A DNA stretch of 44,488 nucleotides from Sphyrna mokarran (GCA_024679065.1 JAGIQG010000272.1:1-44488); one strand, 5' to 3'; shown: positions 2,522 to 36,700, counted from the stretch's first letter. Numbers and translations are program-made. The notes: generated by a model from the letters alone, not told the origin.

Positions 2522-3340
2522 AGTACAAAAAACAAAGAACAAAACAGCACGGGAAACAGGCCCTTCGGCCCAACGACCCCGCCCCGCAACCCCGATATTC
2601 CCATCTCTACTCGCGATTCCTGTTCATGTTTACAGATCTATGGATTAAAAACCAAATTTGAGACAATTTAGGGAGAATTTGTTTTGCCAATTAGCCTAAG
2701 AGCACATCTTTGGGATGTGGGAGGAAGCCGGAGCTCCCGAGAAAACCCACGCAAACACGGGGAGAATGCGCAAACTCCCACAGACACAAGCCCAAATCCA
2801 TGTATCTGCACAGCACAGCGATAGTCACTGAGCTGTCGTGTTACCATCAGATGGTCCAGGTCAAGCATACACTAACAACGTGAAGTAGTAGGATACTCTC
2901 GAAAAAGATCCAAGAGCAGTCCTCTCACGACCCATCGCGTGTATGCCCCTCATTAGACAACAAGGTGGACCAAAGCACCTGTAGGATAAAATACACCAAT
3001 ATCATCATCTATTTACACACTTCCCAGGGATTCCCAAGGCTCATGATCCCTACTTTAAATCAGTTTTCTATACCCCTCCATTCCCATTCTGTTCGTGTGC
3101 CCATCTAATATTTCTTAAATAACTCCAAAGTACCTGCCTCCACCACTTTACTTGGCAGCGTATTCCATACCCCACCACCCTCTGTGTTAAAAAACTCCCT
3201 CTAGCATCCAAATTATACCTTACCCCCTCACCCTAAGCCCGTGACCCCTCGTGGTATTTGAGTCCATCTAGGAAAAAGCTTGGGCCTGTTTACTCTATCA
3301 ATTCCCATCAAAATTTTGTACACATCTAGCAGATCTCCTC
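2522..3340 (-). mobile_element. CR1 3' end with long SINE-containing 3' UTR (chimera copy 1), inserted in another SINE
   Basis: Collinear with 18098-18923 and with the reverse complement of 29070-29848. Confidence 0.85.
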
Positions 3341-6351: not shown

Positions 6352-6810
6352 AAAGTAGGCAGTCAAGTGGATAAAGTTGTTAAGAAGGCATATGGAGTCT
6401 TAGCTTTTATTGGTAGGGGGATTGAATTTAGGAGCCGCAGCATCATGTTGCAGCTTTACAAAACTCTAGTGCGGCCGCACTTGGAGTATTGTGTGCAGTT
6501 CTGGTCGCCACATTATAAGAAAGATGTGGAGGCATTGGAGAGGGTACAGAGGAGGTTTACCAGGAGGTTGCCTGGTATGGAGGGCAGGTCCTATGAAGAG
6601 AGGTTGAAGGATTTGAGGTTGTTTTCGTTAGAAAGGAGGCGGCTAAGAGGGGATCTTATTGAAGCATATAAGATGATTAGAGGTTTAGATAGGGTGGACA
6701 GTGATAGCCTTTTTCCTAGGATGGAGAAAGCTAGCACGAGGGGACACAGCTTTAAATTAAGGGGTATGAGTTATAGGACGGATATCAGAGGTAGGTTCTT
6801 TACTCAAAGA
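6352..6810 (+). mobile_element. 5'-truncated CR1 copy, left part (host of the nested insertion)
   Basis: ORF2 C-terminus ([11 protein letters not shown]...GRFFTQR) broken at CAAAGA. Confidence 0.93.
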
Positions 6811-6906
6811 ACATAGAACATAGAAACATAGAACAATACAGCACAGAACAGGCCCTTCGGCCTTCGATGTTGTGCCGACCAAAATAAAAAGCAATGCCCC
6901 TCCTAA

Positions 6907-8862
6907 CTAAACCATTCCCTTCCTATCCATATACTTATCAACTAACCTCTTAAACGCCACCAAACTTGGCGCATCTACAACAGCTGCAGGCAGGGCATTC
7001 CACTCCCTAATCACTCTTTGAGTAAAGAACCTACCTCTGATATCCGTCCTATAACTCATACCCCTTAATTTAAAGCTGTGTCCCCTCGTGCTAGCTTTCT
7101 CCATCCTAGGAAAAAGGCTATCACTGTCCACCCTATCTAAACCTCTAATCATCTTATATGTTTCAATAAGATCCCCTCTTAGCCGCCTCCTTTCTAACGA
7201 AAACAACCTCAAATCCTTCAACCTCTCTTCATAAGACCTGCCCTCCATACCAGGCAACATCCTGGTAAACCTCCTCTGTACCCTCTCCAATGCCTCCACA
7301 TCTTTCTTATAATGTGGGCACCAGAACTGCACACAATACTCCAAGTGCGGCCGCACTAGAGTTTTGTACAGTTGCAACATGATGCTGCGGCTCCTAAATT
7401 CAATCCCCCTACCAATAAAAGCTAAGACTCCATATGCCTTCTTAACAACTTTATCCACTTGACTGCCTACTTTCAGGGATCTATTGACACATACACCAAG
7501 ATCCTTCTGTTCCTCAACACTATTAAGAGCCCTACCATTAGCCCTATACTCTACACATTTATTGTTCCTGCCAAAGTGCATTACCTCACACTTTTCCACA
7601 TTAAACTCCATTTGCCACCTCTCGGCCCAGCTCTGCAACTTGTCCAAGTCACTCTGTAAACTAAAACACCCCTCTTCACTATCTACCACTCCACCAACTT
7701 TAGTATCATCTGCAAATTTACTGATCCATCCCTCAATACCCTCATCCAGATCATTTATAAAAATTACAAACAGCAGGGGCCCCAAAACAGACCCCTGAGG
7801 CACACCACTCGTCACCGAACTCCACGATGAATATCTCCCATCAACCACCACCCTCTGTCTTCTATCTGCCAGCCAATTTCTAATCCAATTAGCTAAATCA
7901 CCCTCTATTCCACACATCTGCATTTTCTGTAGAAGTCTTCCATGGGCCACCTTATCAAAAGCCTTACTAAAGTCCATATATACTACATCAACCGCCTTAC
8001 CCCCATCCACCTCTCTGGTCACTTTCTCAAAAAACTCAATGAGGTTAGTAAGGCATGACCTACCCTTCACGAAACCATGCTGACTATCCCCAATCAATTC
8101 ATTTCTCTCTAAATAACTATAAATCCTATCCCTAATAATTCTCTCCAATACCTTGCCCACAACAGAAGTAAGACTCACTGGCCTATAATTCCCAGGAAGG
8201 TCTCTCTTCCCCTTCTTAAACAATGGGACCACATTCGCCATCCTCCAGTCCTCCGGAACCACACCCGTAACCAACGAGGACCTGAAGATCAGAGCCAGAG
8301 GCTCTGCAATCTCCTCTCTTGCCTCCCAGAGAATCCTAGGGTAAATCCCGTCCGGCCCAGGGGACTTATCCAACTTCAAACCCTCGAGAATTTCTAACAC
8401 ATCCTCCCTATCTACTACAATACTCCCCAATTTGCAACCCTGTACCTCAGTGCTCTCCACAGCTACATTTCCAGCACTCTGCGTGAATACCGAAGAGAAA
8501 TATTTATTCAGTGCCTCGCCAATCTCTTCAGGCTCCACGCACAACTTCCCACTGCTATCTATGACTGGCCCTAATCTTGCCCTAACCAATCTTCTATTCT
8601 TAACATATCGAAAGAAAGCTTTAGGATTCTCCTTAATCCTATCAGCCAACATCTTCTCGTGTCCCCTCTTAGCTCTCCTCAATTCACTTTTTACCTCCTT
8701 CCTAGCTAATCTATAGCTATCCATTGCACTACCTGAGCCTTCAAGCCTCATCCTGACATAAGCCTCCTTTTTCTTCTTAACCAGCAAATCAACTCTTTTC
8801 GTACACCAAGGCTCTCTTACTCGTACCATTTCCTCCCTGCCTGACAGGGACATACTTATCAA
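6907..8862 (-). CDS. CR1 ORF2 C-terminal part, reverse transcriptase
   Basis: [46 protein letters not shown] motifs; authentic frame starts near RVREPW (about 8823). Confidence 0.95.
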   Translation of the reverse strand: MISMSLSGREEMVRVREPWCTKRVDLLVKKKKEAYVRMRLEGSGSAMDSYRLARKEVKSELRRAKRGHEKMLADRIKENPKAFFRYVKNRRLVRARLGPVIDSSGKLCVEPEEIGEALNKYFSSVFTQSAGNVAVESTEVQGCKLGSIVVDREDVLEILEGLKLDKSPGPDGIYPRILWEAREEIAEPLALIFRSSLVTGVVPEDWRMANVVPLFKKGKRDLPGNYRPVSLTSVVGKVLERIIRDRIYSYLERNELIGDSQHGFVKGRSCLTNLIEFFEKVTREVDGGKAVDVVYMDFSKAFDKVAHGRLLQKMQMCGIEGDLANWIRNWLADRRQRVVVDGRYSSWSSVTSGVPQGSVLGPLLFVIFINDLDEGIEGWISKFADDTKVGGVVDSEEGCFSLQSDLDKLQSWAERWQMEFNVEKCEVMHFGRNNKCVEYRANGRALNSVEEQKDLGVCVNRSLKVGSQVDKVVKKAYGVLAFIGRGIEFRSRSIMLQLYKTLVRPHLEYCVQFWCPHYKKDVEALERVQRRFTRMLPGMEGRSYEERLKDLRLFSLERRRLRGDLIETYKMIRGLDRVDSDSLFPRMEKASTRGHSFKLRGMSYRTDIRGRFFTQRVIREWNALPAAVVDAPSLVAFKRLVDKYMDRKGMV

Positions 8863-9688
8863 GGACTCTCAGCAGCTGCTCCTTGAATAAGCACCACATT
8901 CCAGATGTTCCCAGTCCCTGTAGTTCCCTAGTCCAATCTACGCACCCTAATTCTCTCCTGATGGCCTCATAATTACCCTTCCCCCAGCTATAACTACAGC
9001 CCCCAGCTTCATGCCTATCCCTGTCCATCACTAAGGTGAACGTAACCGAATTGTGGTCACTATCACCAAAATGTTCACTAACTTCCAAGCCTAACACCTG
9101 GTCTGGCTCATTGCCCAGCACCAAATCCAATGTAGCCTCACCTCTAGTTGGCCTATCTACATACTGAGTCAAAAAACCTTCCTGCACACTCTGTACGAAA
9201 ACTGACCCCTCTAACGAGCTAGAGCTATAGCTATTCCAATCAATATTAGCAAAGTTAAAGTCCCCCATCACAATTACCCTACTACTTTCACTCCTAATCA
9301 GAATTGACTTCGCAATCCTTTCCTCAACCTCTCTAGAACTATTAGGAGGTCTGTAAAAGACTCCCAACAGGGTGACCTCTCCTCTCCTGTTTCTAATCTC
9401 AGCCCATACTACCTCAACAGACAAGTCCTCATCAAACTTCTTTTCTATCACCGTGATACAGTCTTTGACCAATAACGCCACTCCTCCCCCCCTTCTACCT
9501 CCTTCTCTACTCCGACTAAAGCATTTGTACCCCGGAACCTGCAACATCCATTCCTGTCCCTGCTCTACCCAAGTCTCTGAAATGGCCACAACATCGAAGT
9601 TCCAGGTACTGGTCCAAGCTGCAAGTTCCTCCCCCTTATTGCGAATACTCCTTGCATTAAAGTATACGCATTTCAAACCATGCCCCAC
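8789..9688 (-). CDS. CR1 ORF2 N-terminal part, apurinic-like endonuclease (separated from RT by one frameshift)
   Basis: YFNARS, ISETW, GGGVALLV, YRPP, MGDFN, LDLVL, SDHN motifs. Confidence 0.92.
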   Translation of the reverse strand: MGHGLKCVYFNARSIRNKGEELAAWTSTWNFDVVAISETWVEQGQEWMLQVPGYKCFSRSREGGRRGGGVALLVKDCITVIEKKFDEDLSVEVVWAEIRNRRGEVTLLGVFYRPPNSSREVEERIAKSILIRSESSRVIVMGDFNFANIDWNSYSSSSLEGSVFVQSVQEGFLTQYVDRPTRGEATLDLVLGNEPDQVLGLEVSEHFGDSDHNSVTFTLVMDRDRHEAGGCSYSWGKGNYEAIRRELGCVDWTRELQGLGTSGMWCLFKEQLLRVLDKYVPVRQGGNGTSKRALVYEKS

Positions 9689-9789
9689 CCCACCCGTACG
9701 CCGCTGTGTTTTACAACTCTCTTCTATAACCCCCTTACTCTCATCCCTCTCAGCACCCCAACTACTTAGGATCCCACCCCCCCCCCGAA

Positions 9790-10713
9790 TCAGTTTAAAG
9801 CCCCCATCATAGCCTTAGCAAATTTTCCCCCCAAGATATTAGTCCCCCTCTGGTTCAGGTGTAGACCATCTCTCTTGAAGAGGTCCCACCTATCCCAGAA
9901 TGAGTCCCAATTGTTAAGGAACCTGAACCCCTCCCTCCTGCACCATCCACGCAGCCATGAGTTCAAACTATCCCTTTCTCTGTTCATCTCTAAACTATCC
10001 CTTGGCACAGGCAAGAGTCCAGAGATAACCACTCTGCCTGTTATGGACCTAAGCTTCCACCCTAACTCCATAAATTTCTGTTTAATATCCCCTTCCCTTG
10101 TCCTACCTACATCATGTGTCCCCACATGAACAATGACTTGGGGCTGACTCCCCTCACCCTTAAGAATCCTAAAAACCCGATCTGCAACATCCTGGACCCC
10201 AGCCCCTGGGAGGCAACACACCAGCCCTGAGTCCTGTTTATTACTATTTACCCTCCTATCTGTCCCTCTAACTATGGAGTCTCCTATAACTAGGCCTAAT
10301 CTCTTATTCCCCCCACCCACCTGAGCATTCTCAGCAGTCTCACCCCCAGAGACCTGCTCCCTTTGGTCAGCTCCAGTTGATTCTTCCTCAACTGTAGCCT
10401 CCAAGACAGAAAATTTATTTTGGAGGGGAACAGCCCCAGGGGATTGTCTCCCCGATTGCTTCTTACCCCTCCTCCTAATAGTTACCCAATTATCACTTAT
10501 AGGAGTTACAATCTCTTTGTTACTCCTGCCTATATCCTCCTCAACCTCTCGAATTACTCTGAGCTCCTCTAATTCCAGCTCCAGCTCCTTAACACGATCC
10601 TCAAGGAGCTGCAAATGTGCACACTTCCTGCAGGTATAATCAGCAGGAACACCACTGGTGTCCCTTACCTCATACATACCGCAGGAGGTGCAATGTACTA
10701 CCTGCACTGCCAT
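9790..10713 (-). CDS. CR1 ORF1p (zinc finger, coiled coil, SGNH/GDSL esterase-like domain), 307 aa
   Basis: CTSC...CRKC, LEDRVKELELELEEL, VIGDSIVRG, HVGTHD, DGLHLN; first ATG (MAVQ) at 10713. Confidence 0.92.
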   Translation of the reverse strand: MAVQVVHCTSCGMYEVRDTSGVPADYTCRKCAHLQLLEDRVKELELELEELRVIREVEEDIGRSNKEIVTPISDNWVTIRRRGKKQSGRQSPGAVPLQNKFSVLEATVEEESTGADQREQVSGGETAENAQVGGGNKRLGLVIGDSIVRGTDRRVNSNKQDSGLVCCLPGAGVQDVADRVFRILKGEGSQPQVIVHVGTHDVGRTREGDIKQKFMELGWKLRSITGRVVISGLLPVPRDSLEMNRERDSLNSWLRGWCRREGFRFLNNWDSFWDRWDLFKRDGLHLNQRGTNILGGKFAKAMMGALN

Positions 10714-10856
10714 CACTGTTACTTTAATTTGCAGGAGAGAAAAAAAAAACCTACACACACACTATTATTATTAGGTTAGAGGAGGGGGGAGGGTGGGATA
10801 CTCTACCTGTGTAGAGTATCGGGTTACCTCTCTGTAAGAATTTATAGAGTCAGAGA

Positions 10857-12366
10857 GAAAAACTACAACTACCGGCAGCCTCCTAGTGACGACTTCCGGT
10901 TACAAGTTAGTTTAAAATAAAAACGGCAAAAACTACTCCCGCTCGCTGTTTTAAACAAAGAGAAAAGTTAAAAAGCTACTTATCAATCGAACTTCTCGCT
11001 CTCCCAAATCGCTGCCTCTCCGTGCTGCTCCAATGGAACAATGAGGCCGATACCCAGAGGTTAGTACTTATATAGCTTAAAAACTACAACTACCGGCAGC
11101 CTCCTAGTGACGACTTCCGGTTACAAGTTAGTTTAAAATAAAAACGGCAAAAACTACTCCCGCTCGCTGTTTTAAACAAAGAGAAAAGTTAAAAAGCTAC
11201 TTATCAATCGAACTTCTCGCTCTCCCAAATCGCTGCCTCTCCGTGCTGCTCCAATGGAACAATGAGGCCGATACCCAGAGGTTAGTACTTATATAGCTTA
11301 AAAACTACAACTACCGGCAGCCTCCTAGTGACGACTTCCGGTTACAAGTTAGTTTAAATAAAAACGGCAAAAACTACTCCCGCTCGCTGTTTTAAACAAA
11401 GAGAAAAGTTAAAAAGCTACTTATCAATCGAACTTCTCGCTCTCCCAAATCGCTGCCTCTCCGTGCTGCTCCAATGGAACAATGAGGCCGATACCCAGAG
11501 GTTAGTACTTATATAGCTTAAAAACTACAACTACCGGCAGCCTCCTAGTGACGACTTCCGGTTACAAGTTAGTTTAAATAAAAACGGCAAAAACTACTCC
11601 CGCTCGCTGTTTTAAACAAAGAGAAAAGTTAAAAAGCTACTTATCAATCGAACTTCTCGCTCTCCCAAATCGCTGCCTCTCCGTGCTGCTCCAATGGAAC
11701 AATGAGGCCGATACCCAGAGGTTAGTACTTATATAGCTTAAAAACTACAACTACCGGCAGCCTCCTAGTGACGACTTCCGGTTACAAGTTAGTTTAAAAT
11801 AAAAACGGCAAAAACTACTCCCGCTCGCTGTTTTAAACAAAGAGAAAAGTTAAAAAGCTACTTATCAATCGAACTTCTCGCTCTCCCAAATCGCTGCCTC
11901 TCCGTGCTGCTCCAATGGAACAATGAGGCCGATACCCAGAGGTTAGTACTTATATAGCTTAAAAACTACAACTACCGGCAGCCTCCTAGTGACGACTTCC
12001 GGTTACAAGTTAGTTTAAAATAAAAACGGCAAAAACTACTCCCGCTCGCTGTTTTAAACAAAGAGAAAAGTTAAAAAGCTACTTATCAATCGAACTTCTC
12101 GCTCTCCCAAATCGCTGCCTCTCCGTGCTGCTCCAATGGAACAATGAGGCCGATACCCAGAGGTTAGTACTTATATAGCTTAAAAACTACAACTACCGGC
12201 AGCCTCCTAGTGACGACTTCCGGTTACAAGTTAGTTTAAAATAAAAACGGCAAAAACTACTCCCGCTCGCTGTTTTAAACAAAGAGAAAAGTTAAAAAGC
12301 TACTTATCAATCGAACTTCTCGCTCTCCCAAATCGCTGCCTCTCCGTGCTGCTCCAATGGAACAAT
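10857..12366 (-). repeat. Tandem array of about 6.8 near-identical 220-221 bp monomers forming the CR1 5' UTR
   Basis: Anchor CTACAACTACCGGC recurs at 10863, 11084, 11305, 11525, 11745, 11966 and 12187; by eye the units differ only in one A-run length. Confidence 0.98.
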
Positions 12367-12571
12367 CAAAGAGTGATTAGGGAGTGGAAATGACCCTGCC
12401 TGCGCAGTTGAGATGCCGCCAAGTTTGGGGCGTTTAAGAGGTTAATTATAAGTATATGGAAGAGAAGGGAATGTTTTAGTTGGAGGGGCATTGCTTTTTA
12501 TTTTGGTCGGCACAACATCAAAGGCCGAAGGGCCTGTTCTGTGCTGTAATGTTCTATGTTCTATGTTCTAT
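12367..12571 (+). mobile_element. Same host CR1 copy, right part with 3' UTR and tail
   Basis: Resumes CAAAGAGTGATTAGGGAGTGG and ends in (TTCTATG)n. Confidence 0.93.
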
Positions 12572-12954
12572 GAAGCATATTTGGAACGGCAGTGACGTTT
12601 GTACTTCTGTACTCAATAATAGACTTTCCAATACAACATCTTTGGAACAGAAATTTGCTAATGACTTGATAAGCTAACTTTGAACTCTTATTTTTATTGA
12701 ATTGTAGCACATGAGCGACGCTAGTTAGCCAGTATTTTAAGCCTATCCTTCGTTACTCTTGGAAGGCATTTGATAATCAATTTGACAGGCATTTGAGAAA
12801 CAAAGCTGCGCATTTGGAGCCGTATGTCAGGCGTTCCAGGTCAGGACGCCAGATTTCCTTCCTTAAAGGGCATTAATAAACAAAACGAGTTTTCATTACG
12901 ATCGAGATTGGTTTCATGGTCATCAGTAAAGTCTTAATTCCTGACTGTTTTTAT

Positions 12955-14469: not shown

Positions 14470-15806
14470 CTGGAGAGAATTATTAGGGGTAGGATTTATA
14501 GCTATTTAGAGAGAAATGAATTGATTGGGGATAGTCAGCATGGTTTTGTGAAGGGTAGGTCGTGCCTTACCAACCTTATTGAGTTTTTTGAAAAAGTGAC
14601 CAAAGAGGTGGATGGGGGTAAGGCAGTTGATGTGGTATATATGGACTTTAGTAATACGTTCGATAAGGTGGCCCATGGAAGGCTTCTGCAGAAAATGCAG
14701 ATCTATGGGATTGAGGATGATTTAGCTAATTGGATTAGGAATTGGCTAGCAGATAGAAGACAGAGGGTGGTGGTTGATGGGAGATATTCATCGTAGAGTT
14801 CGGTGACAAGTGGTGTGCCTCAGGGGTCTGTTTTGGGGCCCTTGCTGTTTGTAATTTTTATAAACGATCTGGATGAGGGTATTGAAGGATGGATTAGTAA
14901 ATTTGCGTATGACACCAAAGTCGGTGGAGTGGTAGATAGTGAAGAAGGGAGTTATAGTTTGCAGAGAGACTTGGACAAGTTGCAGAGCTGGGCCGAGAGG
15001 TGGCAAATGGAGTTTAATGTGGAAAAGTGTGAGGTAATGCACTGTGGCAGGAATAATAAATGTGTAGAGTATAGGGCTAATGGTAGGATTCTTAATGGTG
15101 TTGATGAACAGAGGGATCTTGGTGTATTTGTGCATAGATCCCTGAAAGTAGGCAGACAAGTCGATAATGTTGTTAAGAAGGCATACGGAGTCTTAGCTTT
15201 CATTGGTACGGGGATTGAATTTCGGAGCCACAACGTCGTGTTGCAACTGTACAAAACTCTAGTGCGGCCGCACTTGGAGTATTGTGTGCAGTTCTGGTCC
15301 CCACATTATAAGAAAGATGTGGAGCATTGGAGAGGGTACAGAGGAGGTTTACCAGGATGTTGCCTGGTATGGAGGGCAGGTCTTATGAAGAGAGGCAGAG
15401 GGATTTGAGGTTGTTTTCGTTAGAAAGAAGGCGGCTAAGAGGAGACCTTATTGAAACATATAAGATGATTAGAGGTTTAGATAGGGTGGACAGTGATAGC
15501 CTTTTTCCTAGGATGGAGAAAGCTAGCACGAGGGGACACAGCTTTAAATTAAGGGGTGATAGTCATAGGATGGATATCAGAGGTAGGTTCTTTACCCAGA
15601 GGTTGGTTAGGGAGTGGAATGCCCTGCCTGCGGCAGTTGTAGATGCGCCAAGTTTGGTGGCGTTTAAGAGGTTAGTTGATAAGTTTGTGGAAGAGAAGGG
15701 AATGGTTTAGTATGGAGGGTCATTGCTTTTTATATTGGTCAGCGCAACATCGAAGGCCGAAGGGCCTGTTCTGCGCTGTAATGTTCTATGTTCTGTGTTC
15801 TATGTT
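14470..15806 (+). mobile_element. 5'-truncated CR1 copy (RT to tail) with a stop and a frameshift
   Basis: ORFs 14521-14796, 14803-15408 and 15327-15710; (TTCTATG)n tail. Confidence 0.95.
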
Positions 15807-16164
15807 CCTCTTTGATAAGATGTGAACATTAGACCAGAAACCGGTCTTTACGTTCTTCTGACATAATTTCATTTTCTACTTTTATATCTGCCCCCTGCCA
15901 CAATGCAGTGCTCCCTCAGCAATGCACGGATGTAACGACAGAACTTGCGAGATAAGGAACGAATCCGGATCCCAAGAACATTAGCTAAATTTCGGGATTA
16001 AGGGTCCAGGAAATTATAACGAGGCCAATGTTTCCTACTTAACAGAGGTGAATATTAGTCAAAAATCTCATAACATTTAAACATTTTGAGTCAAGGTGCA
16101 CCGGTACACTTTGGAGTGAGGGATCGGGAGGTGTGGGCATATGGATGCAGATGCTTAATAATCT

Positions 16165-16960: not shown

Positions 16961-18097
16961 TAACCATGTTGAAATTCCTCTTTAGAATCATGTCATGCGT
17001 ACAGAGTGGCATAATGCTCTGTTGGCCATTGTCTGAACGTCAACTTTCACTTTGACAAATAATACCAAAGGCAGATTGTTCCTTAAATGGGAAATTGGCA
17101 ATTGTGACTAGACAACGGAACCTAGGTATCTTTGTTTTCAGCTATAGCATGTGAATGTATAAGCAAGTCAGAAGCCTTTGAAGGTTTGGTAAACGTCATC
17201 ACGAGGAGATTTATGTACCCTTATAAGGATTTCTTGCTATACTTGTATAAGATCCTAATGAGACCTCGCCTGGAGTTTTGCATCCAATTTATTCCCCTTC
17301 TCCCAGCTGTGACATACATCCCAGAGATGTAGTGCAATGCATGGTTAGCAGATCAATGCTTTGTATAGGGATTTGTCTGAGGAGAGATTGATGACACATA
17401 ATCCATATTTCCAACAGCTTTGAAGAATGAGGCGAACGCTTAATTCTGCATATGGTGTGACAGATTGCAAAGGGGTGGACTAGATAAGGTTCCCCGTGCT
17501 TGATTAATGAAATACCTGCGGCTGGGGTGGCTAATTTCAGGAGGTGGAGTGGGCATTTTGAACAAAGAAGGTGGAGAAATTATCCAATCAAAGTGATGAA
17601 TCTTTGAATTGTCTACTCTAGAGAGCTGACAAAACGGGTCATTAGGAAGGTTGAAGGCAAAAGTCTCTGGATCCCTAGAGACGGATGGCATTAAGTGAAA
17701 TAGTGATCCTGTTGGGAAATGCAGATAAGGTCAGTCATCACCTCTCACCTAACGGAACGTCAGGACCATCTCGACGGGTTGAAATTTCACTTCCTGTTTT
17801 TCGACTCCGATGTCTTTGTTTCCTGCGCCTTTCCTGGAACTCCAATGGCTTTTCCCAGAGCCCTGCATTTACTTAACGTCAGAAAAGCATCCAATTCTAA
17901 TCTCAATAATTTTGAGTCAATAGTACTCCATCGCTCTGAGACAGCATAATCCAAAACTTAAACATTGTCTATGTGGGATAGAATGGTTGACTTTTTTTTT
18001 AAATCACCTGCAGTTTTTAATATCTTTTTTCACAAATACATGTTGGCCTACTTGTAGTCTATTATAAGTAATGATGTGGAGATGCCGGTTTTGGATT

Positions 18098-18923
18098 AAC
18101 AAAGAATAAAGAACAAAGAACAAAACAGCAAGGGAAACAGGCCCTTCGGCCCAACGAGCCTGCGCCGCCACCCCGATGATCCCACCTCTACCCGTGATCC
18201 CTGTCTACGTTTATAGATCTATGGATTAAAAACCAAATTTGAGGCAATTTAGGGAGAATTTGTTTTGCCAATTAGCCTAAGAGGAAACCGGAGCACCTGG
18301 AGAAAACCCACGCAAGTACGGGGACAATGTGCAAACTCCCACAGACACAGGCCCAAATCCATGTATCTGCACAGCAGATAGTCACTGAGTTGTCGTGTTG
18401 CCGATCAAATGGTCCAGGTCAAGCGTACACTAACGACGTGAAGCACTAGGATACTCTCGAAAAAAATCCAAGAGCAGCCCTCTCACGACCCATCGCGTGT
18501 ATGCCTCTTGTTAGACAACAAGGTGGACCAAAGCATCTGTAGGATAAAAACAAGTACATCAATATCATCATCTATTAACACATTTCCTAGGAACTCCCAA
18601 GGCTTATGATCCCTATTTTAAATCAGTTTTCTATATCCCTCCATTCCCATTCTGTTCATGTGCCCATCTAAGTATTTCTTAAATTACTCCAGAGTACCTG
18701 CCTCCACCACTTTGCTTGGCAGCGCATTCCGTACCCCCACCACCCTCTTGTGAAAAAAACTCCCTCGAGCATCCAAACTATACCTTACCCCTCTCACCCT
18801 AAGCCCGTGACCCCTCATCTTACTCGAGTCCATCCTAAGAAAAAGCTTAACACTGTTTACTCTATAACCCTCATAATCTTGCACACCTCTATTAGATCTC
18901 CTCTAAGTCTATGTCTTTCTAAG
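18098..18923 (-). mobile_element. CR1-SINE chimera copy 2
   Basis: ORF 18684-18884 (RGHGLRVRG...RGSFFHKRVVG) followed by the shared 3' UTR, SINE core and TTCTTTG-type tail. Confidence 0.85.
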
Positions 18924-21026: not shown

Positions 21027-21375
21027 AGCGGCACGGTCAGCACTGCTGCCTCACAGCGCCAAGGACCCTGTCTGGTTACACCCTTGGGTGACCATCTGCG
21101 TGGAGTTTGCACCTCTCCCTGTGTCTACGCGGGTTTCCACTGGTGCTTCAGTTTCCTCCCACAAACCAAACGGGTGCTTATTGGGCGGATTGGCCATGCT
21201 ATTTGCCCTTTAGTGTCCACAGATGGGCAGGTTAGATTGAATTGCCCTGCTAATTTCCCCCTATGTTCAGGGAGATTAGCGCCGTGAATACCTGGGTTTA
21301 CGGGAAATGGGCCTGGAGGGATCTGCTGCTATTGCAGGCTCAATGAGCCATATGCACAAGTTCTATGATTTTACG
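21027..21375 (+). mobile_element. HE1-like SINE
   Basis: GCGGCACGGT...CAGCACTGCTGCCTCACAGCGCC head, shared core and TTCTATG tail. Confidence 0.75.
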
Positions 21376-24959: not shown

Positions 24960-26580
24960 AGAGAAGTGAACGATTGCCGATGAGTTTCATTCATGTTTCA
25001 TCAGACTCGAGTAGCCGAATCTTAAACAACTATCAGCTCACAGAGCATCCAGGAGGAAGAGCGGGTGATGGATAGTAGTTATTGAGAAGCGGTAACACCT
25101 AAAAATGAAGCTAGCTGTGTGACAGTCAGGAGAACGGAGGAGAGGAGGCAATCAGTGCAGGAATCCCTTGTGATTATTCTCTCCAAAATAAGTATACCTT
25201 TTTGGATACTGCAGGGGAGGATGACCTTCCAGGGGTATGTCTTAGTGACCAGGTCTCTGGTGCCGAGTTGGACTCTATGGGTCAGAAGGAATAGGGGGAG
25301 AATATGAGAGTCATAGTAGTGGGGGACTCAGTCGTTAGAGGCAGAGACATGTGGTTCTGTGAGCGTGAACGAGACTCCAGGATGGTCGACTGTTTCCTTG
25401 GTGCTACGATCCTGGTTGTCTCTGAACGAGTAGAGAGCACCCTAAAAGGGGTCATTGTCATTGTCTACCTTGCTACAAATGACATAGACAGAAAATAGGG
25501 AAATCCAGCAAGGACAATTTAGGGCTTTAGGTAAAAGGCTAAAAAACAAGACTTCACGTGTAGAAATCTCTGGATTGTTCCCCGTGCCAAATACTAGTGA
25601 GGCTGAGAATAGGGAGATAGTGCCGCTGAACACATGGATAAAGAACTGCTGCAGGAAGGAGGGTTTCAGATTTGTGGATAACTGGAATGTCTTTCAGAGA
25701 AGATGGGACCTGTACAAGAAGGAAGGATTACACCTGAACTGGAGAGGCATCGATATCCTGGCTGGGAGGTTTACTATTGTGTTTCGAGTAAATTTAAACT
25801 AATGTGGCAATGGGGTGGGAATCAGAACAGGTCAGCAAGAGAAGAGACTCGGGGGTGGGGGGGGGGGGGGGGGGGGCGAGCACGGGGCCAAGTCAAGGCT
25901 ACCCAAGAGGAACAGCAATCTCGGGAAGGATAAACTCAGTCAGCCTGGAGTTCTGTAGTGCATCTGCTTAAATTAAGGAGCGAATGCGCAAGGCAGATGA
26001 ACTTGGAGCTTTAAGACAGGTGGTAAACTTCAATGTGGTTGCAGTGAGAGGAACTTGAAAGAAGGACAGGACTGACAGCCGAATATTCCGTGTACAAGTG
26101 CTTTAGGCGTGATAGAAGAAGAGATAGTAGAGGTGGGAGAATAGTAATACTGGTTAGGGAGTATATTGCAGCGGTACAGAGGGTGGACAATTTGGTAGGA
26201 TCATGTAATGAAACACTTTGGGTAGAGCTCAGAACCAGGGACGACGCAGTCACTTTTCTGGGGTTATACTACAAGGTCTCCCGACAGCCCACGGAAAGTT
26301 GTGGAACGGATACGTAAGAAAATTCTGGATAGGTGTAGAAAAAATAGGGCGGTTGCAGTGGAAGACTTTAATTTCCCTCATACAGACTGAATTCCGTTAG
26401 GACTGGAGGTCTGGACGAGAAAGAATTTGTGAAATGTGCCCAGGAAGTTTCTTTGGAACAACACGTTGATAGCTCTACTAGAGAGGATGATTTACTGGAC
26501 TGATAAATGGTTAATGAGGCCGGTCAGGTCATCAAACTTTCAGTGGAGGAACATGTGGCGAACAGCGATGACAATTCAGT
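24960..26580 (+). mobile_element. Degenerate 5' half of a CR1 (ORF1 esterase and endonuclease remnants), RT absent
   Basis: VIVVGDSVVRG, CRKEGFRFVDNW...DLYKKEGLHLNW, YKCFRRDR...ETLWVELR. Confidence 0.85.
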
Positions 26581-27470
26581 ACACTAAATCCTATGGCACA
26601 GTTGAGCATAAGGTGTTTCACTCTGTGTATGATTCAAAGAACCAACATGAAAGCTTGTATCAAACAAAGTTTATTTTAGAATATGGCTGAATTTAAATCG
26701 AAATAATTTGCATAACGTTTCCCAATTACACGATTCGAATATGATATAGAATAGACTTTACCAGCCAGCTGTCTATGAAGTTCCAATTCAAACAACATAT
26801 CCCTTTCTAGCCTTAGAACAACCGTAAACATATTCACGTGGTGCTGAGTTTTCAGCTGTTTAACTCCTATCGTGAACTGATCCTTTGAATTTTGGATTAA
26901 ATCACTGAGGCTTCCGAGTCCCAGAAATTTCCAAAACACCTCTGGAGAGAGAAATGGACCGGGACATGCCAGCCTCCATCAGCTGCTAACAGTAATTCAC
27001 AGACAGCATAACTTGAAACTCCAGAGCAAGGGCAACTGCTTCCCACCTCAGGATACTGCTGAACAAAAAAAGTAAAAACTTGCACTTCTCTGCGAAAGAA
27101 AAAAAAAGTCCCCAGGCACCAGCTGACTTAAGAATCACACTCCACCCCGTCCTTTCAAAAGGATCATATCACCGGAGGATTCTGCATTAGTCCAGGTTAA
27201 AAATGAACCAGATGGCAATTATATTGCTTCAGTTGCAATTGGAGGACGATGGTCTCTGTGACCAAAGCATGGCCAACACAATACTAGGAGCTGCTTGAAA
27301 AAGCTACTAAATAACATGATCGCAATCACATTCTTTTTATTGCCACAACTACTTATAGTTATATTGGCTGTGAATGGAAACATTACACTCTTGAATGTAA
27401 TTGTTTAGAAATACAGCCGTCTGCTCAAATGAGCATGTCAATCACATGTGAAATATTTTCTTTTTACTTA

Positions 27471-29069: not shown

Positions 29070-29848
29070 TTTAACAGGGTTAAGCTTTTTCCTAGAATGG
29101 ACTCGAATAGCACATGGGGTCACGGGCTTAGGGTGAGGGGGGTAAGGTATAATTTGGATGCTAGAAGGAGTTTTTTCACACAGAGGATGGTGGGGGTATG
29201 GAATGCGCTGCCAAGTGGTGGAGACAGGTGCTCTGGAGTTATTTAAGAAATACTTAGATAGGCACATGAACAGAATGGGAATGGAGGGATATAGAAAACT
29301 GATTTAAAATAGGGATCGTGAGCCTTGGGAGTCCCTGGGAAGTGTGTAAATAGATAATGGTATTGATGTACTTGTTTTTATCCTACAGGTGCTTTGGTCC
29401 ACCTTGTTGTCTAATGAGGGGCATACATGCGATGGGTCGTGAGAGTGTGGCACTTGGATTTCTTTTCGAGAGTATCCTAATGCTTCAGGTCGTTAGTTTA
29501 CGCTTGACCTGGACCATTTGATGGGCAACACGGCAGCTCAGTGACTATTGCTATGCTGTGCAGATACATGGATTTGGGCCTGTGTCTGTGGGAGTTTGTG
29601 CATTCTCCCCGTGCTTGAGTGGGTTTTCTCCGGGTGCTCCGGTTTCCTCCCACATCCCAAAGATGTGCTTTTAGGCTAATTGGCAAACAAATTCTCCCTA
29701 AATTGTCTCAAATTTGGTTTTTAATCCATAGACCTATAAACATGGACAGGGATTGCGGGTGTAGGTGGGAACATCGGGGTAGCACGGGCTCGTTGGGCCG
29801 AAGGGCCTGTTTCCCTTGCTGTTTTATTCTTTATTCTTTGTTATTTGT
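29070..29848 (+). mobile_element. CR1-SINE chimera copy 3
   Basis: LFPRMDS...GHGLRVRG...FFTQRMVGVWNALP, then the same 3' UTR, SINE core and tail. Confidence 0.85.
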
Positions 29849-29883
29849 GTTTACCCCTGTCCAACGCTGGCATCTCTACATCA

Positions 29884-31770
29884 TGAAGGGACTATTCCCA
29901 ACATTAATGAGCTACATTAATCTGAGTGTGAAGAGCCTGGTAGAAAAAAATACTGACAAAATGGTTCTGAAATGAGCAGTGAATGTTGAGCCTCACTGAG
30001 GGTCTGAACTGCAGACATGCTTGAGGCGGTATAGGCAGCCGCAGAGAGCGGGGCTCGGCAGCAAAGAGGCTCATTGCCTATGATCGCATCTGTTTGCTGT
30101 GAGTGTCAGAACACTCTTATTAACAGCCCATTGGGTGCTGTGCAAAACGCACTGAGGGGAGGAGAACGCTGACCAAGATTCTGACCACTTCACCACCTGA
30201 TGCTAGAGATGGAAAATGATGTTCGAGCTGTAGCTATCAGTGCATTTCCTGTTTCAATAATTGTCGTGCTTTAGGCTCAGAACAGCCTGCAGTAGTCAAA
30301 CGCTGGGACTAAGTGTTAGAATGCAGATTGTCGAGTGCGTCCGCACTATGGTATATTAGATCAAACAGACAACAGGCTCGTATACAATTTGACAGAGAGA
30401 AATCCTGCGGAAACTCCATCAATTCCTCCATGCCAACTAAGTTTCCAAATCGGAAGTAATCCTATTTGCCTTTTCCACCCGTATACCTGTTCAAGTGTCT
30501 TTTAAATATTGTAATTGTACGCATCTGCCACCTCCTCTGGAAGTTCATTCTAGATATCTGCAAAAGGTCTCTCCTCAAAATCCTTTTAACAATTCGCCGC
30601 TCAAATTCAAGCTATGGTCCTTAGTTTTAGACTCTCTTATCCTGGAGTATTGACACCTAAAAAACGGTGCAGATGCGGGAGGAAGGTGCAGACTCCATAC
30701 AGACAACGACCCAAATCGGGAATTGAACCAGCGTCCTTGAAACTATGAGACAGCAATGGAAACCAGAATAATACAGTCAATGCAGGATACAGCCGGGAGG
30801 GCCGAGATTGTCGAATTCCCATGTGCCCTGTGCTCCTCCCACCAATTTCCAACAGATAGCAATTTTGCTGAATTGTTACAGTGCACTTTTGTAGATATTA
30901 CACAGTGTGACCCCAGTGAGCTGCTGGTGAAGGGATTGGTCCCTTACATTAATGAGTTGTCCTAATAGGAATGTGAAGACCTCGTGTAAAGGATTACTGT
31001 TATAATGGGTTCTGAAATGAGCAGACAATGTTGGGCCTTACTGAGGGTCTGAACTATTTACAGAAATGTTTGATCTTGAATAATGATGAAGGGAGTCAGC
31101 AGAGGCAGTAGCTGAGAACCAGCTCCGGTAGCAACGAGGCACATTTCCTGTGACTGCGGCTGTTCGCTGTGAGTCTCAAAATACTCTTACCCACAGCCCA
31201 ATTGGGGCTCTGCAACATGAACTGGAGACGGTTGGCCAAGATTCTGATCACTTCATCATCTGATGCTTGAGATGGAAAAAAAAATGATGTTCTTGCCAGA
31301 AGTTGTCAATGCCTTTCCTGTTTTTTTTACAGTTGAGGCGCTTCATGTACAGAACCGCATAAGGTGGTCAAACACTGGAACTAAGTGTTAAACTGCAGAT
31401 TTATGAATGTTACCCGCCGGGGGTGGCTAGGAGTAAACAGAAAATAAGCTTGTGTATGATTAGAGAGAGAGAAATGCAGCATGGAGCAGATTCTTCTGCC
31501 GAACTCGTCCTTGTTGATCAGGTTTCCTAAACTGAACTAATCTCACTTTCCTGAGCTTGACCATATCCTTTCGAACTTATCCATCCATGTACTTGTACAA
31601 ATGTTTTTTTTTAATGTTGCAATTACACCTGTCACTAACACACCCTCTGAAATCTCATTCCATATGCGCACCACGCTCTGTATGAAACAGTTTACCCCGA
31701 TACCCTTCTATACGTTGCCCTCTCAACTTCGAGCTACGCTCCTCATTTTTTGTTTCTCGACTCCTTTTGA
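29884..31770. repeat. Old local tandem duplication (copy A about 29884-30650, copy B about 30927-31770)
   Basis: Collinear shared blocks: ACATTAATGAG, GGTTCTGAAATGAGCAG, CTGAGGGTCTGAACT, GCTGTGAGT, CCAAGATTCTGA, TTTCCTGTTT, ACTAAGTGTTA. Confidence 0.85.
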
Positions 31771-32004: not shown

Positions 32005-32915
32005 ATGGGATCAGTAAATTTGCAGATGATACTAAAGTTGGTGGTGTGGTAGATAGTGAAGAGGGGTGTTTTAGTTTACAGAGTGACTTGGACAAGTTGC
32101 AGAGCTGGGCCGAGAGGTGGCAAATGGAGTTTAATGTGAAAAGTGTGAGGTAATGCACTTTGGCAGGAACAATAAATGTGTAAAGTATAGGGCTAATGGT
32201 AGGACTCTTAATAGTGTTGATGAACAGAAGGATCTTGGTGTATATGTCAATAGATCCCTGAAAGTAGGCAGTCAAGTCGATAAAGTTGTTAAGAAGGCAT
32301 ATGGAGTCTTAGCTTTTATTGTTAGGGGGATTGAATTTAGGAGCCGCAACATCATGTTGCAACTGTACAAAACTCTAGTGCGGCCGCACTTGGAGTATTG
32401 TGTGCAGTTCTGGTCCCCACATTAAAGAAAGATGTGGAGGCATTGGAGAGGGTACAGAGGAGGTTTACCAGGATGTTGCCTGGTATGGAGGGCAGGTCCT
32501 ATGAAGAGAGGTTGAAGGATTTGAGGTTGTTTTCGTTAGAAAGGAGGCGGCTAAGGGGGATCTTATTGAAGCATATAAGATAATTAGAGGTTTAGATAGG
32601 GTGGACAGTGATAGACTTTTTCCTAGGATGGAGAAAGCTAGCACGATGGGACACAACTTTAAATTAAGGGGTATGAGTTATAGGACGGATATCAGAGGTA
32701 GGTTCTTTACTCAAAGAGAGATTAGGGAGTGGAATGCCCTGCCTGCAGCTGTTGTAGATGCCCAAGTTTGGTGGCGTTTAAGAGGTTAATTGATAAGTAT
32801 ATGGAAGAGAAGGGAATGGTTAGTTAGGAGGGGCATTGCTTTTTATTTTGGTCGGCACAACATCGAAGGCCGAAGGGCCTGTTCTGTGCTGTATTGTTCT
32901 ATGTTCTATGTTCTA
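32005..32915 (+). mobile_element. 5'-truncated young CR1 copy about 0.8 kb upstream of the IgSF gene
   Basis: Starts near FADD; ORFs 32153-32425, 32398-32583 and 32601-32789; (TTCTATG)n tail. Confidence 0.94.
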
Positions 32916-33014
32916 TTTTTTTTTTAATTTAAGAACGTAATGCCGAGGGGTAACAGAATAGATGTCCAGAAAATTCGACCATTAGCACGTACTCAGTGAC
33001 AGTTTCCGGTTTAT

Positions 33015-33773: not shown

Positions 33774-36700
33774 GTGAGTAAGAGGCGGGTGGGAATTTCA
33801 AGCGGAATCGATTTTATAAACTCGAATGAGCGTTTTCTAAGCTGAAAGCGTGAGTGAGCCAGTGTTCGGGTGAAGACATTTGCACTAATCATATAAGTTA
33901 ATTTATTGGTTTTACTCATGAAGTTAAGAAAAAAAATGACAAACAATGATTTAAATGAATGAGGAGATTATGCAGAGGATAACACTGCTGCCTCAAAGCG
34001 TCACAAAGCTTTGTGTGGACTGTGGAGACTGCGTGGGTTTCCTCCGATCGCCCCAGTTTGCTCCCACAGTCCAAAAGAGGTGCTAGTTGATGCATTGACG
34101 GTGCTAAAAAATATCCCTCAGTGTATCTGGACAGGCTCGCAGTGTGGAAGTTAGGGGAATTTCGCCGTAACTTCATTGCAGTGTTAATGTAAGCTTACTT
34201 CTGACATTAATAAAATAAACTTTCATTCGAGACGATTTGATTTTTAGAGTTAGCTTCTGGTATTTCAATAATCATTGCTTATCTCACAATAATCTCTCTA
34301 GTTACAGAATCCGAGTCCTCTCTGTATCAGATCCCTTTCACATTGACAGCTGCGAGAGGCCAAACGGTGGAATTATTCTGTCATGACACTCAAGAAGTGG
34401 ATTTGGTGTCCAACTATGCTTGGTACAAACAGCGGCTAGGTGAAGCCCCGATTCTAATAACCACTACATCCTGTACTGGGCCCGACTGTAAGTTTATTTC
34501 TGAAAAAGGCGATCCAGGGAACGTGTTGATTCTGAAAATTCGCAATGTCCAGATGAATGACTCTGGTTCCTACTACTGTATGTATATATACATAGATCGG
34601 TCTTTACTGTTCCGGTATGCAACCACACTCCTGGTTGGAGGTAAGGGAGAAAGTGAATTCACTCAGAGTATGCACATTATCCTTTTTTTATGTGCGTAAA
34701 TTAATCATTAACTGTGTCCCAATTTCTGTCCAGACAGTTCCACCAACAAGACGGTTGTGCAAGTATTTGTCCCGCCAGCTGATCTGGATGTGAATGATAA
34801 TGTGCCTTTAGTCTGTTTGGTCAGTGGAGTTTCTTCCAAGCAGATTGCTGTTTTCTGGAATATTTCCGGCTTGGTCACTGAGGGATCGAGTGATCCCGGG
34901 ATAACTGGGGAGGACGGGACCTACAGCATCAGAAGTCATGTCATGGTGTCGGGGCAAGTCTGGAGAAATGGCGGTGTCTGTACTTGCATTGTTCAAATGG
35001 GGATTCCAGGCAAATATTGGACGAAAAGTGTATCCTCCCCCAATTCAGGTGAGTTGTCAACCTCCACAATGATGGTTTGAATTCAACTTGTAATCAGTTG
35101 CAGTAATATTCCAAATATTCAGAAACTGACGTCTGTTACGTACACAGAGAGATCTCCAATTGTACCTGCATTATTTATTTGTGGCACACGTATGCTTACG
35201 TTAAAGCTACAAATAAATTGCTGTGAAATATGCCTATTCGCCGTACTCCTGCGCCCATTGGAGTGCACTGCAGAAAATTCAGTCTGCCCAATTCCCGCGA
35301 ACCAGCATGGCTTCAGAGAGTTGGAGGAAACTAGATCGCCTGCAGGAGACGGTGCCAACCTGCACAGACAGTGAATCAAGCCGCGAATCAAACCATGTTC
35401 TCTGGAACTATATGGCGGCAATAGTAATCAATGTGCCACCTGGAATCCTGTCACTTCTCCCCTTCAAGGTAGACTCCGTTTCCCAGCTGAAAGTTTTTAT
35501 TGAATCTGCTTCCATCGTCCTTTTCAGACATTGGATTTTCCAACCCATTTGAAGTCAGTGCAACACTGGATGCGCTTTGCAATCGAGAAACGGAAGCATT
35601 GGACTTCAATACAGATAAATGTGTAGTGGCCCATTTTGGCAGGAATAATGGGATGAAGGAATACAATATAAGGGGTAGGAGCCTTAGCTGTGTTGTAGAG
35701 CAGAAGGATGTCGGGGTCCGGGTCCATAGGACTCTTAAATCGGCCTCGCAGATGGAGGAAGTGGTCAAGTAGGCGTACGGTGTACTGGCCTTCATTAATC
35801 GAGGAATAGAATTTAGGAGTCAGGAGGTAATGATACAGCTCTATAAGACTCTTGTCAGGCCCCAGTTGGAGTATTGTGCGCAGTTCTGATCGCCTCATTA
35901 TAGGAAGGATGTAGAGGCTATTGAAAGGGTTCAGAGGAGATTTACAAGGATGCTGCCTGGATTGAGAGGCAGGCCTTATGAAGATAGGTTGAGGGAGCTG
36001 GGACTCTTCTCACTGGAGAAACGGAGGTTGAGAGGCGACCTGATAGAGGTTTATGAAATGTTGAGAGGAATAGATAGGGTGGACTGTCAGAGACTATTTC
36101 CCCGAGCTGAAATGGTCACTACGAGAGGACACAGATTTAAGGTGCAGGGAAGCAAATACAAAGGAGATGTCAGGGGTAGGTTTTTCACTCAGAGGGTGGT
36201 GAGTGAATGGAACCGACTGCCGTCGGAGGCTGTTGAGGCAAACTCACTGGGGTCTTTTAAGAGACTTCTGGATGAGTATATGGAAAAGAGTAGGATAGGG
36301 GGTTATAGATAGGTCTGTGGATTGGTAGATGTGATCAGCGCAACTCGTGGGCTGAAGGGCCTGTTTGTGTTGTATTCTTCTATGTTCTATGTTCTATGTT
36401 TAACTATTTTCGAAATCTGTCTTTTCTAGTTTCCCTTGAGGTATTAGTTCAATTTTCTATAATAACACTCCAGAATTTTTAGGTTCCGTTTGGCATCTGT
36501 TTTCGTATAAATTCCTAATACCTGGACTCTAATCGCATTAAAATCAAGATGAAAAACAACACATAAATTACATTTTCGACTATTTTATGCTATTTGGTAT
36601 TGTGATTCAGAGAATGTCTGCATGGCCAATGGAATCTATTACAATACATTTCACAACTGGAATTGTATTTGGACTCGTAGTGAGAAATGTGCAAAACTGT

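Follow-up and report, generated by a model that had tools for sequence, protein, structure and literature searches.

The locus and its CR1 element

The window, meaning the whole stretch of 44,488 nucleotides that was analysed, is from Sphyrna mokarran (GCA_024679065.1 JAGIQG010000272.1:1-44488) and carries on its minus strand a CR1-type LINE of ~5.55 kb (6811–12366), recognised as full-length by its ORF layout, its Pfam domains, the shark and ray relatives of its ORF1, and a duplication at both ends. ORF1 (9790–10713, minus strand) is intact and encodes 307 amino acids with a cysteine motif, a coiled-coil-like stretch, and an SGNH/GDSL esterase domain (PF13472, E-value 1.5e-9, supported by alignment). 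Its closest named relative is a protein of Mustelus asterias (64%), followed mostly by proteins of rays, skates, and other sharks (67 hits); the named hits with more than 45% identity and high coverage are all from sharks and rays, except for a single record with a bacterial label. In public databases such labels are attached to elasmobranch-like CR1 proteins from short contigs (protein hits P0010, P0079, and P0126), most likely as a result of contamination, and a comparison of an alignment of ten ORF1 sequences with prokaryotic genome contigs gave 30 pattern matches, none of which was confirmed.

ORF2 (6907–9814, minus strand) contains an APE endonuclease (PF03372/PF14529) and a reverse transcriptase (PF00078), and is broken by a single frame switch between about 8931 and 8840, so that the copy as presently sequenced may be dead in cis. 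Its best 120 hits are mostly reverse transcriptase proteins of birds, turtles, and elasmobranchs that lack family labels and are presumably CR1. A 3' UTR (6811–6906, minus strand) ends in short tandem repeats without poly(A). The APE and RT domains of ORF2, the esterase-type ORF1, the short-repeat 3' end, and a TPRT-type insertion with a 7-bp duplication are those of canonical CR1, and by these features, rather than by a tree, the element at 6811–12366 is classed as a full-length, canonical-type elasmobranch CR1 of the autonomous type. Membership of the L1 clade is ruled out, the esterase ORF1 not being of the Transposase_22 type and the repeat tail not being poly(A).

Several other repeats share the window. 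Five more copies of the same family, all 5'-truncated and ~83–98% identical, lie at 1–1657, 14471–15807, 32008–32923, 37199–37657, and 42925–43055, and their presence speaks for recent, repeated activity. Sequence searches also identified a second, older CR1 on the plus strand (25047–26581), with a broken ORF1, part of ORF2, and its 5' UTR region lost, together with about ten older CR1 fragments. A repeat family of ~800 bp has three copies with 86–89% identity (2525–3340, 18071–18903, and 29073–29884), and a short SINE-like family has four (21039–21236, 38436–38760, 40433–40552, and 42373–42624). An Ig V-set exon (PF07686, E-value 2.7e-10) that has a J-like segment in frame with it occupies 34241–34699 on the plus strand; its top PDB matches are antibody light-chain V domains, and it is possibly a non-rearranging VJ-type immune receptor gene.

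The 5' array and its junction

The 5' UTR of the element is an array (10858–12366, minus strand) of six units of 220–221 nt and one partial unit of 185 nt, for which Tandem Repeats Finder reports a period of 221, 6.8 copies, and 99% matches. Read on the minus strand, the units begin at 12366, 12145, 11924, 11703, 11483, 11263, and 11042, the last being the partial one. No substitution separates the units over 1509 nt, and the full-length units differ only in that one T of a T-run is missing from units 4 and 5. This identity exceeds what is expected from the divergence of the element, which shows six private substitutions over 1336 columns (Poisson P 0.001, or ~0.01 if the clustered private substitutions are counted as one event), and, taken at face value, it indicates recent duplication or homogenisation. 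The array contains 76 CpG dinucleotides and its composition is CpG-island-like, with an observed/expected ratio of 1.17 compared with 0.33 in the element body and 0.53 in the window. No other copy of the monomer was found in the window by blastn, or by nhmmer at E-values up to 10, and the monomer has no match to the element's own 3' end. A special RNA structure of the monomer was rejected, as 25 of 200 shuffled sequences are equally stable (z −1.3).

Each unit carries a characteristic set of motifs. A nonamer that we take to be an ETS consensus site (12216–12224 in unit 1, minus strand, −79 to −71 from the start of the next unit) is present in all seven units, as is an adjoining motif that we take to be a half-CRE (12211–12215, minus strand, −70 to −66); a TATA box (12170–12177, minus strand, −32 to −25) is present in the six full units, and the partial unit lacks the octamer. 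An initiator-like hexamer spans the boundary between units 1 and 2 (12143–12148, minus strand), with a predicted start at 12145 and further predicted starts at 11924, 11703, 11483, 11263, and 11042. The initiator-like A lies 32 nt from the TATA box, or 30 nt from the inner TATA. The sequence-only reading had described just these monomers, with an ETS motif next to CGTCA, a TATA box, and an Inr-like A 30–32 nt further on, and the motif counts confirm it. The distances of the ETS site, half-CRE, and TATA box match the consensus spacing of a proximal promoter. By hand arithmetic from base composition, rather than by shuffling, ~6% of such units would contain a consensus TATA octamer by chance and ~0.4% a perfect ETS core when both strands are counted. 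Outside the array, the window contains no further ETS nonamer and no further TATA octamer. No start codon lies upstream of ORF1 in the 365 nt of monomer plus tether, by eye, where hand arithmetic predicts ~6.

Two splice-site-like features recur in the units. The 8-nt motif at 12161–12168 (plus strand), which overlaps the end of the TATA spacer and has the same place in each full unit, is a near-consensus splice donor in antisense orientation, and an antisense promoter with splicing into flanking DNA is possible. Every unit also has a strong polypyrimidine tract with a splice-acceptor-like end (12270–12299 in unit 1, +68 to +97), which could capture splicing from an upstream host transcript.

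The array is joined to ORF1 by a unique tether of 144 nt (10714–10857, minus strand) without a significant match to the monomer. Local alignment does not support the tether as a diverged whole monomer (101 of 500 shuffled sequences score as high), and the only part comparable to the monomer is a second TATA-like box (10840–10846, minus strand) 11 nt past the end of the partial unit. Further along is a perfect 10-bp hairpin with a 4-nt loop (10797–10820, minus strand); a shuffled tether folds with equal stability in 17 of 1000 cases. No copy of the tether was found elsewhere in the window by blastn, and nhmmer gave one hit with an E-value of 7.2.

The element is nested, in antisense orientation, in a 5'-truncated copy of its own family, and the empty site can therefore be read. 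The left half of this target copy lies at 6352–6810 and the right half at 12373–12575 (both plus strand), and the element is flanked by a 7-bp target-site duplication at 12366–12372 and 6804–6810, the first bases of the latter also matching the tail repeat. The element itself and the copy at 32688 have the same seven bases at the corresponding site, and three other copies have them with one or two changes. Base 12366 is common to the target and to monomer position +1, so that the element begins either at the initiator A or at the next base, two of the 221 possible phases. The earlier proposal of a 5' junction at 12366, at a base that is also compatible with a 7-bp duplication, is borne out by the empty site together with its ambiguity. 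A random end would fall on one of these two bases with a probability of 2/221 (0.9%), or 25–36 nt after the TATA box with a probability of 12/221 (5%), figures that refer to one junction and to an initiator picked after the fact. As target and monomer have just one base in common at the breakpoint, the phase is not accounted for by homology-guided truncation. Position −1 of the outermost unit is a purine contributed by the flank; we infer that the G adjoining the junction was templated by the target, and a cap-derived G, which would be indistinguishable, is compatible with it. All six other aligned copies are 5'-truncated, so that chance truncation remains a live prior for a single junction, and five of these sibling copies show only candidate duplications of 4–5 nt, too short for certainty. 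The alternative that two copies were joined by deletion instead of nested was rejected, as the two halves of the target copy keep their register on either side of the 7-bp duplication; it is also contradicted by the nature of the right half's excess difference, which consists of indels, not substitutions.

Published elasmobranch CR1 consensi

We compared the element with the published CR1 consensi of PMC13343379 (Supp. Table 2), taking the first 400 nt of each; all of the observations that follow were made by eye and are unscored. The set holds 97 elasmobranch entries—23 from catshark, 24 from white shark, 16 from whale shark, 24 from dogfish, 7 from sawfish, and 3 from skate—with the remaining sawfish and skate entries and all stingray entries standing outside it. 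Many of the 97 start within ORFs. Direct repeats (~30–290 nt) are present at the start of at least 18, from six species, and a TATA-like box in each unit is clear in eight of these 18, weak in three, and absent in seven, which shows that the repeats do not need a promoter of this type. The TATA-less units of ScyCan_CR1-7a/7b and CarCar_CR1-2/23 open with a motif that we assume to be CTCF-like. Shark Zenon consensi begin with apparent tRNA-like heads. The monomer described here occurs in none of the 97 within the first 400 nt. By these counts 5' arrays are a family trait, and TATA-type units one recurring kind, as far as the consensi represent the family.

The eight consensi with a clear box allow the register of the units to be examined. 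An initiator-like site lies 27–35 nt past the box in four (RhiTyp-7, ScyCan-6, ScyCan-19, and PriPec-4), where ~1 is expected. Three start 32–36 nt after the box (RhiTyp_CR1-2a, RhiTyp_CR1-7, and ScyCan_CR1-11b; ~0.8 expected) and five miss the predicted phase (ScyCan-6, ScyCan-19, PriPec-4, LeuEri-1, and CarCar-14), consensus ends being a crude proxy for the ends of copies. Clustering of 5' ends in phase across the consensi is thus only modestly supported: the sequence-only view that the 5' end of the element is the start site of the monomer extends to three of eight testable consensi and fails in five. Both this view and its companion claim, that the units are promoter monomers, agree with the motif geometry, the CpG-island composition, the lack of an upstream ATG, and the recurrence of TATA and initiator in units of other shark CR1 elements. 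RhiTyp-8, RhiTyp-11, and two chimaera L2 consensi likewise have a TATA-like box with an initiator at 27–32 nt.

Other parts of the layout recur as well. The 8 nt past the TATA box of the array resemble a motif past the box in RhiTyp-2a, -7, -8, CarCar-14, and ScyCan-6, and several other shark families have a perfect version of the donor-like motif there. The succession of full unit, partial unit, and tether is also seen in RhiTyp-2a, ScyCan-19, ScyCan-7a, CarCar-23, and SquAca-15b. The tether hairpin and the C-rich block that follows it are present in ten of the 97 consensi, from four species (PMC13343379 supplement), and the hairpin variants include two-sided (compensatory) changes and G-U pairs, which point to an RNA structure and suggest the hairpin as a candidate cis-acting RNA element. 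An AT-rich, TATA-like box stands ~26 nt before the hairpin in six of these ten, like the box at 10840–10846 in the present tether, and the partial unit and tether may represent a conserved and older core promoter at the foot of the stack.

A proposed promoter stack and its relatives

The observations to be explained are the repeat structure, the motif positions, the 5' junction in register with the unit boundary, and the membership of CR1. That this is a real 5' UTR array we regard as highly probable, and it is likely, from its motifs and composition, that it acts as a promoter; that the TATA box sets the start at the initiator A is reasonably probable. The best explanation of the whole, which we favour with some caution, is a consumable stack of Pol II promoters, with units re-duplicated, that would serve an autonomous-type elasmobranch CR1. 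Each full unit would end in a conventional Pol II promoter, with the ETS site and half-CRE at about −75 and the TATA box at −32, and transcription would start at the initiator A that opens the next unit, giving an RNA without the unit that drove it and with all of the units downstream. An RNA that starts at a unit boundary would yield a complete cDNA ending exactly at a unit boundary, as the present element does. The outermost unit of a new insertion would be silent at its own +1, having neither TATA box nor initiator upstream of its first base, so that daughters of the present copy should have at most 5.8 units, and the persistence of the family would depend on re-duplication.

Units could be regained during reverse transcription if the nascent cDNA re-anneals from the 5' end of the RNA to a downstream unit, for which the 185-nt partial unit would be the minimal homology. 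We lean tentatively to this homology-guided route over crossing-over or slippage because it predicts identical units, an end in register, and the recurring layout of full plus partial unit. Unequal crossing-over or slippage in DNA is a possible but somewhat unlikely source; at a single locus, unequal crossing-over makes nearly the same predictions, and the present locus cannot separate the routes. Earlier, the parent had been supposed to be driven by a further upstream monomer. If units are added during copying, it would have needed only two units, not eight. A bolder reading, which we consider doubtful, is that shark CR1, and perhaps chimaera L2, abandoned the internal promoter for TATA/initiator stacks rebuilt by an LTR-like cDNA jump, in which the cDNA would pass from the 5' end of the RNA to the next homologous unit and the partial 3' unit would act like the R region of an LTR. 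If true, a non-LTR element would regenerate its promoter in the style of LTR elements, and a lineage could capture and amplify any host-type core promoter.

The most serious alternative to a consumable stack, though an unlikely one, is an internal promoter as in most LINEs, with elements downstream of +1—a reversed NF-Y-type box at about +9 to +13, and the ETS and CRE sites acting within the unit—placing the start on the first base of the unit; in that case the outer unit would be kept, the TATA box would be accessory, and extra units would mainly add strength. Promoter activity lies inside the 5' UTR in most characterised LINEs (PMC2881922), in mouse L1 the starts are clustered close to an internal YY1 site (PMC10620060), and lizard and zebrafish L1 open with an ETS-like motif inside the element, from a reading of the printed consensus (PMC5381506). 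Among the shark consensi, ScyCan_CR1-6 opens with a 7-mer that is found at +7 in the present unit, far from its own TATA-like box, and many have, by eye, a module of CRE and reversed NF-Y downstream of their repeats. That module is degenerate in the present monomer, again by eye; the ETS site, half-CRE, and TATA box stand at canonical upstream distances from the next unit, not at internal positions; and unrelated shark monomers keep the TATA-to-initiator spacing. A version in which Pol III defines +1 internally, the first 70 nt of the unit being a tRNA- or SINE-like head, we rate as barely credible. It would use an A-box-like string at +11 to +22, a B-box-like string at +50 to +59, and a T-run at +69 (+11 to +59 being 12308–12356 in unit 1). 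The strings stand at tRNA spacing, by eye and unscored, and the seemingly tRNA-derived heads of shark Zenon consensi offer a precedent. A ribozyme- or tRNA-headed 5' end finds no support in Rfam (no match at E-values up to 10) or from ARAGORN, which made no call; no tRNA family was detected in the window at E-values up to 5, the invariant C is missing from the B-box-like string, each unit has six runs of at least four T that would stop polymerase III long before ORF1, and the folding of the monomer is unremarkable (z −1.3).

Two further alternatives question the history or the reality of the array. The array may be real and the junction a matter of ordinary 5' truncation that happened to fall at the initiator, or the units may have grown after insertion in the manner of a minisatellite, without a role in the cycle. 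Six of the seven aligned copies are truncated and there is one informative junction, the identical units are what local expansion would leave, and five of eight consensi are off phase; the phase has a chance probability of ~1–5%, there is no helpful microhomology, and the presence of 5' repeats in 18 or more of the 97 consensi, across six species, makes the array a family trait, all of which renders this account improbable. An artefact of assembly or polishing, with fewer true units or with diverged units overwritten by the family consensus, is less probable still. In its favour are ten one-base indels within 95 nt (12388–12482), just outside the junction, compared with four or fewer per 110 nt in five other stretches, two to four in the densest 110 nt of four other copies, and none in the 459 nt of the left half of the target copy. 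The cluster looks like unpolished long-read sequence, so that the number and identity of the units are uncertain. Sibling copies have scattered one-base deletions, ORF2 has a lone frameshift, and the differences between units are confined to a homopolymer; reads from other copies may have homogenised the units in assembly or polishing, and the unit number may be wrong. Against this, the junction flank is clean over its first 22 nt, the window contains no N, the two ends agree in register with the duplication, and such arrays are found in the consensi of other sharks. The 36-nt segment that carries the TATA box occurs only inside the array, and at least one unit-to-unit junction must therefore come from real DNA. 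An artefact could alter the number and identity of the units and is unlikely to have created the architecture.

A long-standing problem is how a LINE can retain a promoter located upstream of the site where its own transcription begins. In Drosophila HeT-A and TART, and in LTR-type elements, such a promoter is supplied by repeated sequence, coming from the 3' end of a neighbour or copied from the 3' end of the element; the shark monomer, in contrast, has no match in the 3' end of its element or elsewhere in the window. The Dictyostelium element TRE5-A, of an unrelated lineage, has A-modules in tandem. Its 200-bp 5' A-module shows activity as a promoter and is described as an internal promoter (PMC3159450), in a paper whose accessible text does not use the word "tandem". 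Closer relatives offer other arrangements. Chicken CR1-B and CR1-F, which are canonical CR1, have promoter activity in a single-copy 5' UTR of ~240 bp with E boxes, and direct repeats of 32 bp are reported for elements of turtle and pufferfish (PMC2734521); the chicken UTR has no large monomer array, and "TATA" is absent from the accessible part of that report, whereas the shark element has both. Some ORF1-less vertebrate elements of the CR1 group have one to five repeating 5' subunits of 100–500 bp with species-specific sequence (PMC13343379, Fig. 4 legend; the same passage is in bioRxiv 10.64898/2026.01.13.699120). The shark CR1 consensi in the supplement of that study hold such repeats and share the tether hairpin. 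Its text, in the parts available to us, places the subunits in ORF1-less elements only, gives no function, and does not contain the words "promoter" or "monomer", whereas the element described here has an intact esterase ORF1 and 6.8 units.

The nearest functional parallel is mouse L1Md (A, TF, and GF), in which CpG-rich tandem monomers of ~200 bp are joined to ORF1 by a tether (PMC5381506, PMC9022269), as CpG-rich units of similar length and a tether precede ORF1 in the shark element. In mouse L1 the 5' ends gather at a start site inside the monomer (PMC6454616), daughters have 0.6–1.8 fewer monomers, with starts near YY1 sites (PMC10620060), and the regain of monomers is ascribed to second-strand priming or unequal crossing-over, the mechanism being stated as unresolved (PMC6454616). 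A consumable stack is therefore an already known kind of system; as an idea it was anticipated by mouse L1 (PMC10620060) and by the CR1-group subunits (PMC13343379), and that part of the sequence-only reading is not new. Its statement that the arrangement is undescribed for shark CR1 has held up: in the literature searched, with Repbase Reports and most subscription papers outside its scope, no account of TATA/initiator monomers turned up for a CR1 that carries ORF1. Mouse L1 starts are fairly broad and near YY1 or AP-1 sites, mouse monomers come in subtypes, and "TATA" is absent from the accessible text of PMC6454616 and PMC9022269; the units of the shark element are identical, combine an ETS site, half-CRE, TATA box, and initiator in upstream geometry, and predict a sharp start with loss of whole units. 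TATA-directed monomers should thus give a single-base start, which would make gains and losses of units exactly countable across shark CR1 copies. CR1 constitutes 15–17% of the genome in white shark and catshark (PMC13343379, Supp. Table 4), and shark genomes would, if the stack reading is true, be seeded with strong TATA-type promoters of CpG-island character. The two LINE clades differ, which makes the likeness convergent, and the monomer strategy would then have arisen independently in CR1 and L1. That the shark array works like the mouse L1 monomer promoter, with upstream-type TATA/initiator units in an ORF1-bearing CR1, is partly supported.
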